Positions 6,626-13,155 are shown, counted from the stretch's first letter. The stretch is DNA of 64,000 nt from Candidatus Moraniibacteriota bacterium (GCA_963743885.1 CAVURJ010000002.1:109020-173019), one strand, 5' to 3'. Made by a program: numbers and translations. Notes: generated by a model from the letters alone, not told the origin.

Positions 6626-8137
6626 ATGATGGAGTTTCAGATCAGGACATATAGGAAAAGCATGGAGGATGTGCCGCAGGATATCCGGGATGCTTTCCGT
6701 ACGCCGATCGTACTGACGATGGTGCATAAGAAGAATACTACCGCGTTCTTCCCGTCTTTTGTTATCATCGATTTCACCTGCGGAGAGCTGACGCATATCC
6801 GGAGCTATCTTCCGGAGAATGTAGTGCTGAAGAAGGCTCATCCGGAGAATGCGTCGATCGTGACGCGGCCGCACATGGTGAATCCCCATTGCATCATCGA
6901 GGTTCATCCCGGAAAGGATTTCTATGCATTCGTGGATGGAGGGAACTATTTTTTGCATGTCGACTATGTGACCGGAAAGATGCGGACATATTTCGCGAAG
7001 GATGTGCTGGCTGATGGAGACTTGGGGAATTTCGGATGGTTCTCGGCGACGGCGTATAAGGATGATGACGATCCACGCTTCTTCCACTTCGCCGTCGAGA
7101 GCCGGCAAGAAGAGAAGCGATATCTCGATTTTTGTCGGATGAGTCTGGATCGCTCCGATGCCAGGCGAGTGTTCCGGTCGGATATGGCGGATTTCTTTCC
7201 GGTACCGCATGCGGTCAGGAAATTCCGTGGGCGCATCTTCAATTCCAGGTTTGAGGGGGGGCGGTTCCGGTATCGTGAGTCTGGCAAGATGTTTGATTCC
7301 ATTGAGGCGCTTTCCGAACATATCTACCGTGGTCTTCATCGAGAGTTCTGTGCTCTTTCCGGTGGAGAAATGTCCGAGAGGCGATTTGAAGATGACGTCA
7401 CATCTTTTTATCCGGAGACCGATTTCAGTTCGGATTTTCAGAGGTTCTGTGAGGATCGCGGAGGGAATATCGTCGGGATAGGCCGTCGTGATAACCGGTA
7501 TGTATTTGAGGCTTTGCCAGGGATATTCTTGGCAATCAATCTGGGGACCGGATCGCTTGAACGGTATGAGACGACGTTCTGCTCCCCGGCGCATTTTGAG
7601 GCGGATGAACGCGATGACGCGCTTTATGTCTCATCGCATAATTTCCTTCGTTTCGGTAAAAAGATGCTGTTTCTTGGTCCGGCCGCTCTCGATAAATTCG
7701 TGATCCGAGACGGGGGAGTGAAAAGGGTCGGATCGTTTTCCGATCCGTCCGGGTATCGTTTCACGTCGCATAAAATCTTCTATCATCGGGGACATTCGTA
7801 TATATGCACTATCGGCCACCCGAACCGATTGTTCATCATCGATGCTGAGACGATGGAGTTGGTGTATCATGTTGATCTTTTTCGGGATTCGCTGTCGAGT
7901 ATTTCGGATATCGGAGAGTTCGTCAATCAGTATGACGGACCATTTCTTTCAGCAGTTGAAGTATCGGATGATGGTGAGTATATTATTGTGATTGGTAGTA
8001 GTTCGATCTATTTCTTTAGTGTCATAGGTCGCCGAATCATTTATGAGATGCCAATTTTTCAAGTGTCCGATACTGAGTATGATAAGTCGTATTGGAAATT
8101 TGTGATGCGGACAGTGCATATGAACCGTCTCACTTAG
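6626..8137 (+). CDS. Hypothetical protein, first gene of the putative YcaO/SagB RiPP operon
   Basis: Long ORF with no recognisable motif. The track start (6503) overlaps the divergent gene, so the first in-frame ATG (about 6626) is preferred. Ends 6 nt before the next ORF. Confidence 0.4.
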   Translation: MMEFQIRTYRKSMEDVPQDIRDAFRTPIVLTMVHKKNTTAFFPSFVIIDFTCGELTHIRSYLPENVVLKKAHPENASIVTRPHMVNPHCIIEVHPGKDFYAFVDGGNYFLHVDYVTGKMRTYFAKDVLADGDLGNFGWFSATAYKDDDDPRFFHFAVESRQEEKRYLDFCRMSLDRSDARRVFRSDMADFFPVPHAVRKFRGRIFNSRFEGGRFRYRESGKMFDSIEALSEHIYRGLHREFCALSGGEMSERRFEDDVTSFYPETDFSSDFQRFCEDRGGNIVGIGRRDNRYVFEALPGIFLAINLGTGSLERYETTFCSPAHFEADERDDALYVSSHNFLRFGKKMLFLGPAALDKFVIRDGGVKRVGSFSDPSGYRFTSHKIFYHRGHSYICTIGHPNRLFIIDAETMELVYHVDLFRDSLSSISDIGEFVNQYDGPFLSAVEVSDDGEYIIVIGSSSIYFFSVIGRRIIYEMPIFQVSDTEYDKSYWKFVMRTVHMNRLT

Positions 8138-8143
8138 CAGAGT

Positions 8144-9226
8144 ATGGATGTGATTACACGGAATATCTCATTCCGGTCTTATGAGGAGCGACATGCGTGT
8201 GTAACGGGTATACGGGATATCCGTGAATTTGTCCTGTATCTTGAGTCATTGGAACGCGGAGGGGCCAGAATCGTTTCGGGGGTGTATGTTTCCGGATCGG
8301 CCGATGACGCGGCGCAGCGGATGCTTCGCCGCTATTCGATTTTGTCTCTGATGCATTCGATAGAGCAAGGATGTGCGTCCGATGCAGCGAATGCGTCGAT
8401 AGTGGCGGTTTCTGGGGATATCCGCGTCGAGCATATCCAGTCGGAAGACGGGCATGCGCTGGGAACGTGTGTCGAGGCCGGCGGGTATTTGCACCTTTCA
8501 CTTGCCGGGTTATCAGAAGGAACGGCTCTGGCAGGAGAGGTATCCTTTTCGGATGAGATTGCGGAGGAATATGTGAGGAATGGGCGGTGGCTGCATGGAT
8601 ACGGATTTTCATCGGAGCACGTCTGCCGTTATTGGAACTATATGGCCGATATCGCGTCGCATTATGCTGATTTTAATCGGGCTCGGGACGGGTATTTCGT
8701 AGCGCAAGGCGTGAAGGCATATCCGGCTGCGACCGGTATCGAAGCGGTCTTCCCGGGGGAGCGGAGGATCTCGATCGGACTTGAGGCGTATCGGCCGATT
8801 GCGGATGGATCGGTCATCATCGCTCCAGTCGTTTCTGATATGCAGTGCGAGGCGAGCATGTATGGACCGAAGTTCTCACGCGCGACGAGCGTCGTATTCC
8901 CGAAAGACGGCATTGAGAAGCTGTACGTATCCGGAACATCGAATATCGGGAAAACAGGACAGTCTACGAAGGGGCAGGACGTTCATTCTGATATTTCCTA
9001 TACCATGTCCTGTATCGGACACCTCTTATCGAAACGAGGTATGTCGCTTGAGGATATCGTTTCGGCACGCGCATACTTTCATGATGCGGCGGCATATCAG
9101 GCGTTCCTTAGTCTCTATCTCTCCGAGGGCTGGACATTTCCATATATACCTGTCTTTTCTTCGGTTTGTCGGAAAGAGCTTGTTTTCGAGATGGAGTGCC
9201 TTGCGGCTCATCCCTTTGGCACATAG
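8144..9226 (+). CDS. Hypothetical protein in putative RiPP operon; C-terminal region weakly RidA/YjgF-like
   Basis: 360 aa, tightly packed between operon genes. The C-terminal '...IVSARAYFHDAAAYQAFLSLYLSEGWTFPYIPVFSSVCRKELVFEMECLA' resembles the YjgF/RidA C-terminal signature. Low certainty. Confidence 0.35.
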   Translation: MDVITRNISFRSYEERHACVTGIRDIREFVLYLESLERGGARIVSGVYVSGSADDAAQRMLRRYSILSLMHSIEQGCASDAANASIVAVSGDIRVEHIQSEDGHALGTCVEAGGYLHLSLAGLSEGTALAGEVSFSDEIAEEYVRNGRWLHGYGFSSEHVCRYWNYMADIASHYADFNRARDGYFVAQGVKAYPAATGIEAVFPGERRISIGLEAYRPIADGSVIIAPVVSDMQCEASMYGPKFSRATSVVFPKDGIEKLYVSGTSNIGKTGQSTKGQDVHSDISYTMSCIGHLLSKRGMSLEDIVSARAYFHDAAAYQAFLSLYLSEGWTFPYIPVFSSVCRKELVFEMECLAAHPFGT

Positions 9227-9271
9227 CAAAGGATGGTGATATAGTGGAGATACCCGTATGTTTGTTTGATT

Positions 9272-11613: not shown

Positions 11614-11662
11614 TCCTAGAAATGATGATTTTGTCAAAAGCGGTTGTCTTCAGTGGGGGAAT

Positions 11663-12058
11663 ATGGTACAGTCTAAGTACTTTCGTGTCGTGTCATTCGT
11701 AATTTCGATGCTGAATCCTATGGCCAAGACTTCCGTGAGAGCGGTCAGGCTCCTCTATTTGTCGATATTGACGCTTGTTGTGTTCGTAGTCGGGCTCTTC
11801 GCGAAGAATAGCGACAAAGCCACTCTATCCAAGGGAGACGAAGACGATGATTCGTTCAGGGTTCCATCGGCGTCGGCAGATACGCCTTCTGGCGCTGCTG
11901 CTTCCAGTGGCGCTAGCGCTAGCAGTGGTGACGGGTGGGATTGTAGCTCTAGTGGTTGTGGTTGTGCTGGTTGTGCTGGTAGTAGTGCTGGTAGTAGTGC
12001 TTCTGGTGCTGGTGCTGGTGCTGGTGCTGGTGCTGGTGCTGGTGCTGGTGGTGGTTGA
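11663..12058 (+). CDS. Candidate TOMM/LAP precursor peptide: leader with hydrophobic segment plus Gly/Ser/Cys/Ala-rich core (...DGWDCSSSGCGCAGCAGSSAGSSASGAGAGAGAGAGAGAGGG)
   Basis: In-frame small ORF immediately 3' of ycaO. The first ATG after the ycaO stop has a GGGGGA SD-like run. The C-terminus strongly resembles microcin B17/heterocycloanthracin cores and ends in a (GCTGGT)n repeat. Alternative starts are at 11708 and 11720. Confidence 0.5.
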   Translation: MVQSKYFRVVSFVISMLNPMAKTSVRAVRLLYLSILTLVVFVVGLFAKNSDKATLSKGDEDDDSFRVPSASADTPSGAAASSGASASSGDGWDCSSSGCGCAGCAGSSAGSSASGAGAGAGAGAGAGAGGG

Positions 12059-12090
12059 TTCCGTGTTCCGTATCGGAATTTAGTTTGGAT

Positions 12091-13155
12091 ATGAATACAA
12101 AAAATCAACGCACATTCAGGGTTCTTGCTGGATCAGTCGGGGTATTTTTTGTTTTCGTCGTTGGTATTGCCGTATGGAGCGCCGTGAAGGAGTACCCCGT
12201 GTCATCGTATGAGGCAGCTACGCACGCTTATCGTTCCGGGGATATGGCACGAGCGATAGCTGTTCTTGATGAGATGATACGTCGGGATGCTCGGACGGAC
12301 GAAACGCAGCCAGTCATAGCGAGGCGCTTTTTGGCTCAGAGTCTTTTCTTGCGCGATCGGGAGGGCGATCGCGTCCGGGCTATCGAGCTGCTCCGTGAGA
12401 TCGTTGAGAACCCTGCGGCGACGCCGGCTATGCGGGCTGCGGCGCTGAATGATATGACGGGGCTGTATATCGCTTCCGAGGATCGATGGATATTTGCAAA
12501 ACGCGCTATTTTCCAGGGCGATCTGTTCGGAGGATTCCTTAGGGATGATGGCGTACCGATGGCGATGAAGCGGATGATAGAATATGGGTATGATCTCCAT
12601 CCGACGCCTGACGCCGTGCTGTATATGGCGTATTGGTATGCGAGCTCGATACGTTCCAGCCGCGATGCGCCGAAGGATGAATACGTGCCGATGTTGTTGA
12701 AATGGCTCAATGAAGGAGAGAAGTTCTTTTCAGGGGAAAAGAAGTTCCGCCCCGAAGTCTATTCGAAGGAAGAGCTTGCCCAGCTTTATTTTCTTGATGC
12801 GGAAGCGCGGATGGTTTTAGCGCCATTAGCCTCGAAAGATTCGCCAACCATGATGGACGGCGAGGTATTGGTGGAGCAGGCGTACCAACGCGCTCTTTCG
12901 GCTTTGATGCCAGAAGACGATTTTCAATCGTATCAGCAAGGATTGGTCATCAGATTCCGTTATGCATCATTCTTGGCGAGTGCGTATGGGGATGCGCGTG
13001 CAGACGAGATACGTTCTTTGGTTGATCCGATAGTGCGTGCGCCGCGGAAATTTGCTCCTGATGATATCGTGACACCGATCGAGCGGATTGTACGCGGTAC
13101 CAAGAATGCTGATTTGGAACGTATCGCTCCTAGTATCTGGACTGCTGTACAGTAG
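12091..13155 (+). CDS. Membrane-anchored alpha-helical protein of unknown function, last gene of putative RiPP operon
   Basis: N-terminal TM (VLAGSVGVFFVFVVGIAVW) then a helical soluble domain. The ATG at 12091 is preferred over the TTG at 12055 used by the ORF track. Overlaps/abuts the precursor stop. Confidence 0.4.
   Translation: MNTKNQRTFRVLAGSVGVFFVFVVGIAVWSAVKEYPVSSYEAATHAYRSGDMARAIAVLDEMIRRDARTDETQPVIARRFLAQSLFLRDREGDRVRAIELLREIVENPAATPAMRAAALNDMTGLYIASEDRWIFAKRAIFQGDLFGGFLRDDGVPMAMKRMIEYGYDLHPTPDAVLYMAYWYASSIRSSRDAPKDEYVPMLLKWLNEGEKFFSGEKKFRPEVYSKEELAQLYFLDAEARMVLAPLASKDSPTMMDGEVLVEQAYQRALSALMPEDDFQSYQQGLVIRFRYASFLASAYGDARADEIRSLVDPIVRAPRKFAPDDIVTPIERIVRGTKNADLERIAPSIWTAVQ

Follow-up and report, generated by a model that had tools for sequence, protein, structure and literature searches.

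A probable linear azol(in)e peptide locus in a Candidatus Moraniibacteriota bacterium, with no recognisable E1-like partner protein

Can a bacterium of the candidate phyla radiation (CPR) install azoles in a peptide without the E1-like partner protein of canonical azole-forming systems? The question is raised by a stretch of 64,000 nucleotides (nt) from a Candidatus Moraniibacteriota bacterium (GCA_963743885.1, CAVURJ010000002.1:109020-173019), hereafter the window, in which six successive plus-strand genes had been predicted to form an operon for a peptide that is made by the ribosome and modified after translation (RiPP), of the thiazole/oxazole-modified microcin (TOMM) or linear azol(in)e peptide (LAP) kind. 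All six open reading frames (ORFs) were found where they had been placed (Table 1). The presence of a SagB-type dehydrogenase, an azoline-type YcaO and an adjacent precursor rich in Cys, Ser and Gly supports the proposed TOMM/LAP-like cluster, and we conclude that the locus probably encodes a LAP/TOMM-type RiPP system of a CPR lineage. It would work like a LAP/TOMM system, appears to lack the E1/ThiF partner, and has a precursor that seems to fall in no described family.

Our computations concern the enzyme families, the lack of a detectable partner, the architecture and co-localisation of the precursor family, and the co-conserved genes. For comparison we fetched 69 YcaO loci. Family counts come from clustering all ORFs of 58 non-redundant CPR loci (window included), and the scanned set also included 11 non-CPR TOMM loci. 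Domain searches of the window with hidden Markov models (HMMs) covered the ORFs of 1-23.6 kb, about 24 of its 64 kb.

The enzyme pair and the precursor family

The dehydrogenase ('B' protein) has the two SagB motifs that had been read in its translation, PSAGARYPIE and KYGDRGYRYALLEAGH, and also a Lys-Tyr motif, RMKYGDRGYRY. It scores 122 bits against TIGR03605, for which the cutoff is 78.4, and matches the nitroreductase family PF00881 (E 3.7e-19). Among solved proteins the nearest to it are 3eo7, CyaGox (a cyanobactin oxidase), BmdC and McbC; thiazoline oxidases are thus represented, by CyaGox and McbC. A SagB homologue is present in 45 of the 58 CPR loci.

The YcaO ('D' protein) matches PF02624 over residues 151-492 with 169.7 bits (cutoff 25.7). 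The more specific TOMM cyclodehydratase model TIGR03604 gave a mixed answer: the alignment spans all of its 377 positions (1-377), and the score is 208.1 bits for a cutoff of 219.25. The thioamidation model TIGR03266 reached 60.9 bits (cutoff 365) and the E. coli-type model TIGR00702 49.8 bits, below its cutoff. As had been noticed, the protein ends in NLVPHPFP. P-H-P-F-P is kept in 22 of 24 homologues; across the 24, ExxER and ExxxRD are invariant and PHPF invariant or nearly so. Dunbar et al. reportedly established in 2014 that a PxPxP C-terminus marks azoline-forming YcaO enzymes. The AlphaFold2 model of the full-length protein has a predicted local distance difference test score (pLDDT) of 88, and its best matches in the Protein Data Bank (PDB) are LynD, MusD and TruD (Foldseek E 1e-24 to 1e-20), followed by thioamide YcaOs, E. 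coli YcaO and McbD. Profile searches gave E values of 1e-31 to 1e-29 for LynD, TruD and MusD, 1e-25 for the thioamide-forming MJ1094, and 3e-7 for McbD.

The third element is the small ORF downstream of YcaO. The Gly/Ser/Cys-rich C-terminus attributed to it is there, with the tail DGWDCSSSGCGCAGCAGSSAGSSASGAGAGAGAGAGAGAGGG running up to the stop codon. Its likeness to a microcin B17 or heterocycloanthracin core holds for composition and goes no further: the ORF has no match in Pfam or NCBIfam, curated bacteriocin precursor families included. Three starts were considered, ATG 11663 (the longest ORF), 11708 and 11720. The last best fits the family; inspection for Shine-Dalgarno sequences, which few genes here show clearly, gave no decision. 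From 11720 the peptide has about 112 amino acids (aa). Its leader (11720-11881, MAKTSVRAVRLLYLSILTLVVFVVGLFAKNSDKATLSKGDEDDDSFRVPSASAD) consists of a basic N-terminus, a hydrophobic helix of 18 residues, an acidic spacer of 22 residues (..DDDSFRVPS) and ASAD. The core (11882-12055) has 58 aa, with 4 Cys, 15 Ser/Thr and 19 Gly; it reads TPSGAAASSGASASSGDGWDCSSSGCGCAGCAGSSAGSSASG(AG)nGGG, with the inner segment DCSSSGCGCAGCAGSS, and its last 53 nt are a hexanucleotide repeat that encodes the (Gly-Ala)n end.

Six-frame scans of all loci revealed equivalent small ORFs at 35 CPR loci, 21 of them at most 170 nt downstream of YcaO and the others within 4.4 kb. In this family the N-terminus is basic (median net charge +4) and precedes a hydrophobic helix of 17-26 aa, after which the charge is neutral or acidic; in 29 peptides out of 29, the N-terminal charge exceeds the post-helix charge. 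Next come a spacer (median length 17 aa), often containing [DE]-S-[LF]-[FLI], and a junction A/V/T-x-A-D. All 30 aligned leaders share the 'AD' of this junction, which is usually followed by [ATV]-P. The core is hypervariable, Gly-rich and acidic, with medians of 42 aa, 3 Cys and a net charge of -4. The combination of a hydrophobic helix with A[HSYNRF]AD occurs 25 times in the six-frame translations of 828 kb, always in precursor ORFs at CPR YcaO loci or in Hint-domain fusions; the 11 non-CPR TOMM loci lack it. The precursor provides the single instance in the entire 64-kb window, which rules out, for the available sequence, that A-x-A-D is a general secretion signal of the organism. Examined as a Sec signal peptide, the leader has a basic n-region and an h-region and lacks a short A-x-A c-region. 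In substrates of signal peptidase I, the c-region places about 3-7 aa before the A-x-A cut. Judged by this conservation, the small ORF is a genuine precursor gene and not a chance ORF.

At loci whose YcaO is 41-47% identical to that of the window, gene callers omit the precursor ORF or pick another frame, and the same loci keep the Cys/Gly/Ser frame with identical architecture. Because only this frame is conserved, we rejected as wrongly framed the gene-caller ORFs at 11847-12083 of the window and 10460-10666 of L004, and the N-terminal extension of 11748-13130 in L001. In public records the region is mis-framed or merged with the downstream gene, giving hydrophobic (Val/Leu)n or (Glu/Val)n artefacts. 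Therefore, the precursor family is probably under-represented in protein databases.

Two variations on these elements were seen at other loci. In the type II CPR loci (L035-L049, L065), YcaO ends in PHMF[STP] and not in PHPFP, the leaders contain S-Y-S-K-x-[DE]-S-[LFW], the cores are semi-conserved (W-x-W ... G-D-G-C-G-G-C-S-G), and a different membrane protein of 386 aa follows the precursor, often in two or three tandem copies. In L036 (1939-2757) and L030 (5517-6293), the same leader, a transmembrane helix with A-R-A-D, is fused to a Hint/intein-like module. The module is weak in L030 and above cutoff in L036 (36 bits for both PF01079 and PT-HINT), where another A-S-A-D and a tail rich in Gly and Cys come after it. 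These fusions suggest autoproteolytic processing or C-terminal thioester activation of some members.

Partner absence and comparison with known systems

The original prediction recognised no E1-like or Ocin-ThiF partner ('C' protein), and this was borne out for every ORF scanned. Models of E1, ThiF and the RiPP recognition element (RRE) matched neither the two upstream genes (g1 and g2), the downstream membrane protein (g6), the tetratricopeptide repeat (TPR) protein, the Cys-rich p401, the phosphoribosyltransferase-propeller fusion (PRTase-propeller) and the AMMECR1 fusion, all listed in Table 1, nor the other co-conserved families. The negative covers those families plus the scanned ORFs of the window, and the same HMM library, applied as a control to a classical Bacillales cluster, returned only a weak, below-cutoff leader-binding signal. 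Canonical LAPs require an E1/ThiF-like partner that binds the leader, and standalone YcaOs are known from bottromycin (PMC7136475). By the presence of such a partner, the window enzymes would not count as a canonical TOMM synthetase.

Every YcaO of the CPR clade, type II enzymes included, carries a family-specific N-terminal domain of 135-150 aa, which in the window occupies about residues 1-150 (nt 10015-10470). Within the full-length model, its residues 31-70 and 91-130 have pLDDT values of 80-93; modelled in isolation, the domain reaches 72, a medium confidence. We considered whether it could be a hidden RRE or an E1 remnant and rejected any detectable relationship: its profile retrieved only noise from PDB sequences, the isolated model had no Foldseek match below E = 6, and hhalign gave a probability of 0.3% for its relation to the N-terminal extensions of Bacillales YcaOs. 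As no E1/ThiF-like partner was found, leader recognition is therefore assigned to this domain, which would be the most economical candidate; a TPR or beta-propeller companion is a possible alternative.

The closest precedent for the locus is the set of CPR clusters described by Sharrar et al. (2020, mBio, PMC7298704), who found in a Microgenomates metagenome-assembled genome (MAG) a LAP cluster with YcaO, nitroreductase, peptidase and an 84-aa precursor, and whose survey of other CPR bacteria yielded 110 LAP clusters from 93 further genomes; in 89 of these clusters a nitroreductase adjoins YcaO. The expectation that a TOMM cluster in a CPR genome would be unusual is thus outdated. The window shares with these clusters the CPR host, a YcaO beside a nitroreductase-type gene and a small Ser/Cys-rich precursor, and, on this likeness, almost certainly belongs to their group, which is defined by bioinformatics. 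The main text of Sharrar et al. places a peptidase in the cluster, whereas none was recognised in the ORFs of 1-23.6 kb here, where several of the conserved neighbours could be assigned to no family; that main text makes no mention of a signal-anchor leader, A-x-A-D, the absence of a partner, or TPR, TPR-like and PRTase-propeller companions. Our literature search found no paper characterising any CPR LAP cluster.

Better known systems resemble the locus in part. Microcin B17 (McbA, with McbBCD) has a Gly/Ser/Cys-rich core, a YcaO (McbD) and a flavin mononucleotide (FMN)-dependent dehydrogenase (McbC), both remote relatives of the window enzymes. It differs in its leader-binding E1-like McbB, of which no counterpart was found here, in its McbEFG-type export and immunity set, also absent here, and in the McbA leader, which is short and soluble whereas that of the window has a transmembrane-like helix. 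LynD, TruD and MusD, fusions of E1-like and YcaO parts, are the closest solved relatives of the YcaO domain; to their N-terminal RRE and E1-like region of about 400 aa the CPR domain of 135-150 aa has no detectable similarity, and macrocyclase and protease genes are absent here. The standalone YcaOs of bottromycin likewise do without an E1, ThiF or TfuA partner (PMC7136475). That pathway differs in having a follower peptide, two divergent YcaOs (one amidine-forming), a single thiazole and no comparable SagB-type partner, and we found no specific sequence relationship to its YcaOs. Heterocycloanthracin/sonorensin- and thiopeptide-type clusters, which use an Ocin-ThiF-like 'F' protein, also combine repetitive Cys/Gly/Ser cores with YcaO and SagB. 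The query that gave the CPR loci also retrieved four Bacillales loci of this broad type (L058, L060, L063, L068). In L060, with thiopeptide-type genes alongside, the YcaO N-terminal extension gives a weak signal for the leader-binding model TIGR03882; the CPR domain shows no profile similarity to this extension, and the heterocycloanthracin precursor model does not match the window precursor.

The existence of LAP clusters in CPR bacteria is already known. As far as we found, the leader and junction architecture, the partner-less enzyme with its own N-terminal domain, and the membrane-protein and PRTase-propeller companions appear undescribed. CPR LAP clusters have so far been antiSMASH calls, and the present analysis gives them a testable anatomy of precursor family, enzyme pair and membrane companions. 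A YcaO that truly needs no partner would be of interest to biotechnology as a compact enzyme for installing azoles; should the leader indeed route the peptide through the general secretion machinery, this would be an unusual solution to RiPP export. The genomes of CPR bacteria (Patescibacteria) are minimal, and a life in attachment to hosts is assumed for them. A specialised-metabolite system retained under these conditions is therefore likely to matter for their lifestyle.

Proposed pathway and competing explanations

The chemistry on the peptide, the binder of the leader, the timing relative to membrane insertion, the cleavage and the biological role (antibiotic or surface) have to be inferred, and we propose the following sequence of events. 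A precursor of about 112 aa would be made with a leader resembling a membrane anchor. Before or during its leader-led delivery to the membrane, YcaO would use ATP to cyclodehydrate core Cys, and possibly Ser, within DCSSSGCGCAGCAGSS to azolines, which the FMN-dependent SagB would oxidise to azoles. The leader would be recognised by the N-terminal domain of YcaO, or possibly by the TPR or beta-propeller companion, with the conserved stretch [DE]-S-[LF]-[FLI] ... A-x-A-D as the likely element of recognition and cleavage; its A-x-A-D junction looks like a cleavage site. The positive-inside leader would then leave the acidic, Gly-rich modified core outside the membrane, where it might be released by a cut between A-x-A and D or kept tethered. 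The dependence of the enzymes on ATP and FMN means that modification has to come before translocation. Such an order is plausible, as a peptide with about 110 aa is off the ribosome before co-translational targeting.

Several observations weigh against this interpretation. The system is known from sequence alone, and the translation, the modification and the product are predictions. The leader is expected to put the core outside the cell, yet the enzymes, dependent on ATP and FMN, are cytoplasmic, unless modification comes before translocation as proposed. The azoline-forming YcaOs characterised outside bottromycin need an E1/ThiF-type partner and none was found here; the N-terminal domain, with its pLDDT of 72 when folded alone and no RRE-like match, is a leader binder by conjecture. 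The TIGR03604 score lies 11 bits under the curated cutoff, and some loci have no SagB gene within 6 kb. Cores of some family members hold no Cys or a single one (L021, L029, L033), and A-x-A stands at a median of 17 residues from the helix, too far for textbook signal peptidase I.

A different use of the same enzymes and substrate is unlikely but deserves attention: the leader may anchor the peptide for good, as a signal anchor, and the acidic tail with its azoles may stay tethered on the cell surface, to serve with the membrane-anchored TPR and Cys-rich proteins in, for example, envelope structure, metal binding or host-cell attachment. The full helix of 17-26 aa and the positive-inside bias of 29/29 peptides fit such an anchor, as do the distance of A-x-A-D from the helix, too great for a standard signal peptidase, and the predicted ectodomains of the companions (N-in 19 vs 5 for TPR, 13 vs 0 for p401). 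The scanned window ORFs (1-23.6 kb) included no recognisable peptidase or ABC exporter, and many CPR bacteria, episymbionts with reduced genomes, have the system. However, leader/core cleavage classically shows itself as an invariant junction, here A-x-A-D, with a hypervariable core behind it, hypervariable cores are typical of antagonistic peptides, the CPR LAP cluster of Sharrar et al. does include a peptidase (PMC7298704), and the topology is based on charge counts alone. It is quite improbable that the small ORF is a syntenic low-complexity protein, secreted or in the membrane, and that YcaO and SagB act on another protein or peptide. Several records leave the ORF uncalled and callers prefer other frames, its core is partly a simple hexanucleotide repeat, some family members have few or zero Cys, and E. 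coli-type YcaO proteins work in a non-RiPP context. On the other hand, the frame, the leader architecture and the junction are kept across YcaOs down to about 26% identity, the ORF stays beside YcaO through extensive shuffling of gene order, the alternative frames lack conservation, the cores are enriched in Gly-Cys and Gly-Ser, and TIGR00702 reaches just 50 bits, below cutoff. Gly-Cys and Gly-Ser are the preferred context of azole-forming enzymes, as in the specificity of the microcin B17 enzymes and BalhD.

The absence of a partner could also mean that the YcaO performs another chemistry (thioamidation, amidine formation, or ATP-dependent cleavage of peptide bonds as in MusD) and that SagB has a different redox role. 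We consider this very improbable. Its arguments are that bottromycin standalone YcaOs are also partner-less (PMC7136475), that the best structural matches include MusD, a YcaO that acts as an ATP-dependent peptidase, that the profile matches MJ1094 at 1e-25, and that type II relatives end in PHMF[STP] and not in PxPxP. They are countered by the 208 bits of TIGR03604 against 61 for TIGR03266, by the lack of TfuA among the scanned ORFs of the window and the co-conserved families, by the C-terminal PHPFP, and by a true SagB, whose stop codon has a 4-nt overlap with the YcaO start and which is found together with YcaO in 45/58 loci. Hardly credible, finally, is the original proposal that g1 and g2 replace the E1-like 'C' protein in the cyclodehydratase complex. 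They do lie immediately upstream on the same strand, and on one JGI contig (that of P0034) the pair is about 3 kb from a nitroreductase/YcaO pair. Yet none of the 69 fetched YcaO loci has a homologue of either gene, whereas the precursor, the TPR gene and g6-like genes are conserved there; g2 has a fold like RidA and chorismatase, the pair also occurs without YcaO, next to radical-SAM, short-chain dehydrogenase/reductase (SDR) and nucleotidyltransferase genes, and a promoter-like site separates it from SagB. The proposal is thus rejected on comparative grounds, those of the locus survey and of the recurrence of the module elsewhere. We treat g1-g2 as a putative inserted accessory module outside the conserved RiPP machinery, which is very unlikely to act as a general 'C' protein and may have a tailoring role.

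The preferred reading, an azol(in)e peptide whose leader and core are eventually separated or kept together at the membrane, can be extended to a more speculative scheme, possible but doubtful in our view. A YcaO/SagB pair without partner would install the azoles, a new N-terminal domain without detectable RRE ancestry would recognise the substrate, and a signal-anchor leader of Sec/YidC type would deliver the RiPP to the outer face of the membrane without a dedicated transporter. There it would act or be released together with the TPR, Cys-rich and PRTase-propeller proteins as a surface or host-interaction module, and not as a classical secreted antibiotic.

Companion genes, locus layout and host lineage

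The conserved set extends beyond the six genes originally delimited, to the TPR and the PRTase-propeller genes (Table 1). Companion genes change order and orientation among loci and yet stay together, which argues for a functional link and not for inherited synteny. Of the non-enzyme genes, none accompanies the SagB/YcaO pair as often as the TPR gene, which is transcribed divergently: in 29 loci, a homologue with 27-60% identity is found at most 6 kb from YcaO. Its matches to TPR_2, TPR_17 and TPR_16 have E values of 1e-10 to 1e-11. The homologues have 254-266 aa vs 311 aa for the window ORF, in which translation probably starts 30-47 codons downstream of position 6596. Homologues of p401, with an N-terminal membrane anchor and no Pfam or NCBIfam match, usually adjoin the TPR gene. 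Counts of Lys and Arg place the N-terminus inside in 19 TPR members (vs 5) and give N-in/C-out in 13 of 13 p401 members, which suggests that both companions expose domains outside.

For g6, a membrane-anchored product of 366 aa, the originally suggested role in export or immunity is possible; profile and library searches did not recognise it as a transporter. It consists of a transmembrane helix and a domain of about 330 aa with TPR-like helical repeats; the family profile matches consensus TPR proteins of the PDB over positions 45-106 (1e-31 to 1e-8), Pfam TPR matches are weak, and the orientation from Lys/Arg counts is ambiguous (9 vs 7). The g6-like genes of 22 loci are nearly always directly 3' of the precursor, and a related family of 386 aa takes this position in a second subtype (12 loci).

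The PRTase-propeller (PF13570 1.6e-56, PF13360 4.5e-49, TIGR00336 7.6e-20 and below cutoff) is found in 20 loci, directly beside SagB in about 14 of them, and also on the P0034 contig. Its part in the pathway may be that of a scaffold for substrate binding, or of a tailoring enzyme of a new type. Its phosphoribosyl pyrophosphate-binding motif VVLVDDLMNTGQS is intact, and it has no transmembrane segment. The AMMECR1 fusion of about 640 aa occurs in 11 loci, often directly upstream of YcaO. The window fragment has no Pfam match; its homologue in L001 matches PF01871 (6.8e-14) and, weakly, SQHop_cyclase_C. Its C-terminal region is squalene-cyclase-like (alpha/alpha toroid); the L001 copy is at 7299-9245. 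The alpha/alpha toroid is also the LanC fold. Several loci have this gene just 5' of YcaO, some of them without SagB within 6 kb. Between the p401 and TPR genes, the window encodes an Lnt-like apolipoprotein N-acyltransferase (2159-3817, minus strand), a polytopic membrane protein (3834-4664, minus strand) and a UbiA-family prenyltransferase (4792-5664, plus strand). The Lnt-like and UbiA genes are near YcaO in 4 loci each and hint at a link with envelope lipid or lipoprotein biology.

Table 1. Features of the locus in window coordinates, with the evidence on which each assignment is based
Feature	Coordinates	Strand	Basis or remark
AMMECR1 + squalene-cyclase-like fusion, C-terminal end, cut by window start	2..748	+	clustering with ~640-aa proteins
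Cys-rich membrane-anchored protein ('p401' family)	873..2120	-	homologues in 13 loci
Membrane-anchored TPR protein	5661..6596	-	TPR_2, TPR_17, TPR_16 matches
g1	6626..8137	+	503 aa, uncharacterised family
g2	8144..9226	+	360 aa, RidA/YjgF-fold
Promoter-like site	9216..9245	+	TTGGCA, 18-nt spacer with TG, TATAGT
SagB-type FMN-dependent azoline dehydrogenase ('B' protein), predicted	9272..10018	+	TIGR03605, PF00881
YcaO cyclodehydratase ('D' protein), predicted	10015..11613	+	PF02624, TIGR03604, C-terminal PHPFP
Precursor peptide gene, predicted	11663..12058 (longest ORF)	+	conserved ORF family, 35 CPR loci
Hexanucleotide tandem repeat, 8.8 copies of CTGGTG	12003..12055	+	Tandem Repeats Finder
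Short hairpin + T-rich tail	12065..12079	+	3' of precursor stop; weak stem of 6 pairs
g6, single-pass membrane protein, TPR-like	12091..13155	+	family profile, synteny in 22 loci
PyrE-like phosphoribosyltransferase + PQQ/BamB-type beta-propeller fusion	14128..15780	+	PF13570, PF13360, TIGR00336

The six genes had been described as tightly packed, with gaps of at most 6 nt or overlaps of 4 nt. This is correct for g1 and g2 (6 nt) and for SagB and YcaO (a 4-nt ATGA overlap); the remaining gaps are looser. From g2 to SagB there are 45 nt, or 39 nt with a TTG start at 9266; from YcaO to the precursor ORF, 49, 94 or 106 nt for the starts at 11663, 11708 and 11720; and from the precursor to g6, 32 nt with ATG 12091, a 4-nt overlap being obtained only with a TTG start at 12055. 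The promoter-like site 5' of SagB matches 10 of 12 consensus positions. In a scan of the locus, promoter- and terminator-like sites were no more frequent than in shuffled sequence, and they therefore serve as positional hints only. With this positional evidence alone, SagB, YcaO, the precursor and g6 could be transcribed independently of g1-g2, and the hairpin behind the precursor is possibly, and no more than suggestively, a leaky terminator.

The g1 protein has no Pfam or NCBIfam match, and its family comprises 212 representative clusters, all unannotated. In g2, PF01042 matches with 4.4e-10, PF21168 and TIGR04444 stay far below their cutoffs, and the N-terminal region weakly resembles the chorismatases FkbO and Hyg5; homologues of 31-45% identity have the same domains. 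In other loci the place of g1-g2 is taken by a short TPR-SagB intergenic region or by the AMMECR1 fusion gene. The pair is a recurrent two-gene module, with copies at 6626-9226 of the window, at 4582-7270 of L070 and on the P0034 contig, which also carries propeller, TPR and radical-SAM/SPASM genes and an 85-aa ORF. A copy on a contig without YcaO has radical-SAM, DUF362, SDR and nucleotidyltransferase neighbours. Taken together, the genes found with the module are radical-SAM/SPASM, IspD-like nucleotidyltransferase, teichoic-acid-type glycerophosphotransferase, SDR and arylsulfotransferase genes. Of about 60 other YcaO loci examined, 1 has the module.

The guess that the window comes from a CPR-like genome was right, because all close YcaO homologues stem from Patescibacteria MAGs and the 23S rRNA gene is stretched by insertions. 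In a search of 5.8 billion proteins, 8,000 candidates that share words with the YcaO were scored, and only 25 of these reached E <= 1e-10; the few with a named source are from Woesebacteria, Parcubacteria and Moranbacteria. The database holds the window YcaO as a 530-aa version (P0001) that starts at the second in-frame ATG, and the exact 532-aa form had no match there. A scan of one genome per species returned 63 loci, about 50 of them in Patescibacteria MAGs and the others in classical TOMM clusters of Firmicutes and Actinobacteria. The 23S rRNA gene (24315-28909) takes 4,595 nt for model positions 1-2925, with about 1.7 kb of insertions. Insertions in this gene are common in CPR bacteria, of which they are a hallmark. 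The only ORF of at least 110 aa in the region (26012-26482) is on the minus strand, and the insertions may therefore lack a homing-endonuclease gene.

The window shows a positive GC skew in 32 of 32 consecutive 2-kb bins (0.03-0.24), regardless of gene strand. A one-sided skew across whole chromosomes has been described for some Microgenomates (PMC7143001); identity with the Ch65 genome of that kind was ruled out by its GC content of 44.8% vs about 52% here. A 5S rRNA gene lies at 28998-29105, and the 64-kb window holds no 16S gene. Five plus-strand tRNA genes (Ala-TGC, Ile-GAT, two Met-CAT and Asp-GTC) are located at 59990-62013, distant from the 23S and 5S genes. The usual place of Ala and Ile tRNA genes is the 16S-23S spacer.

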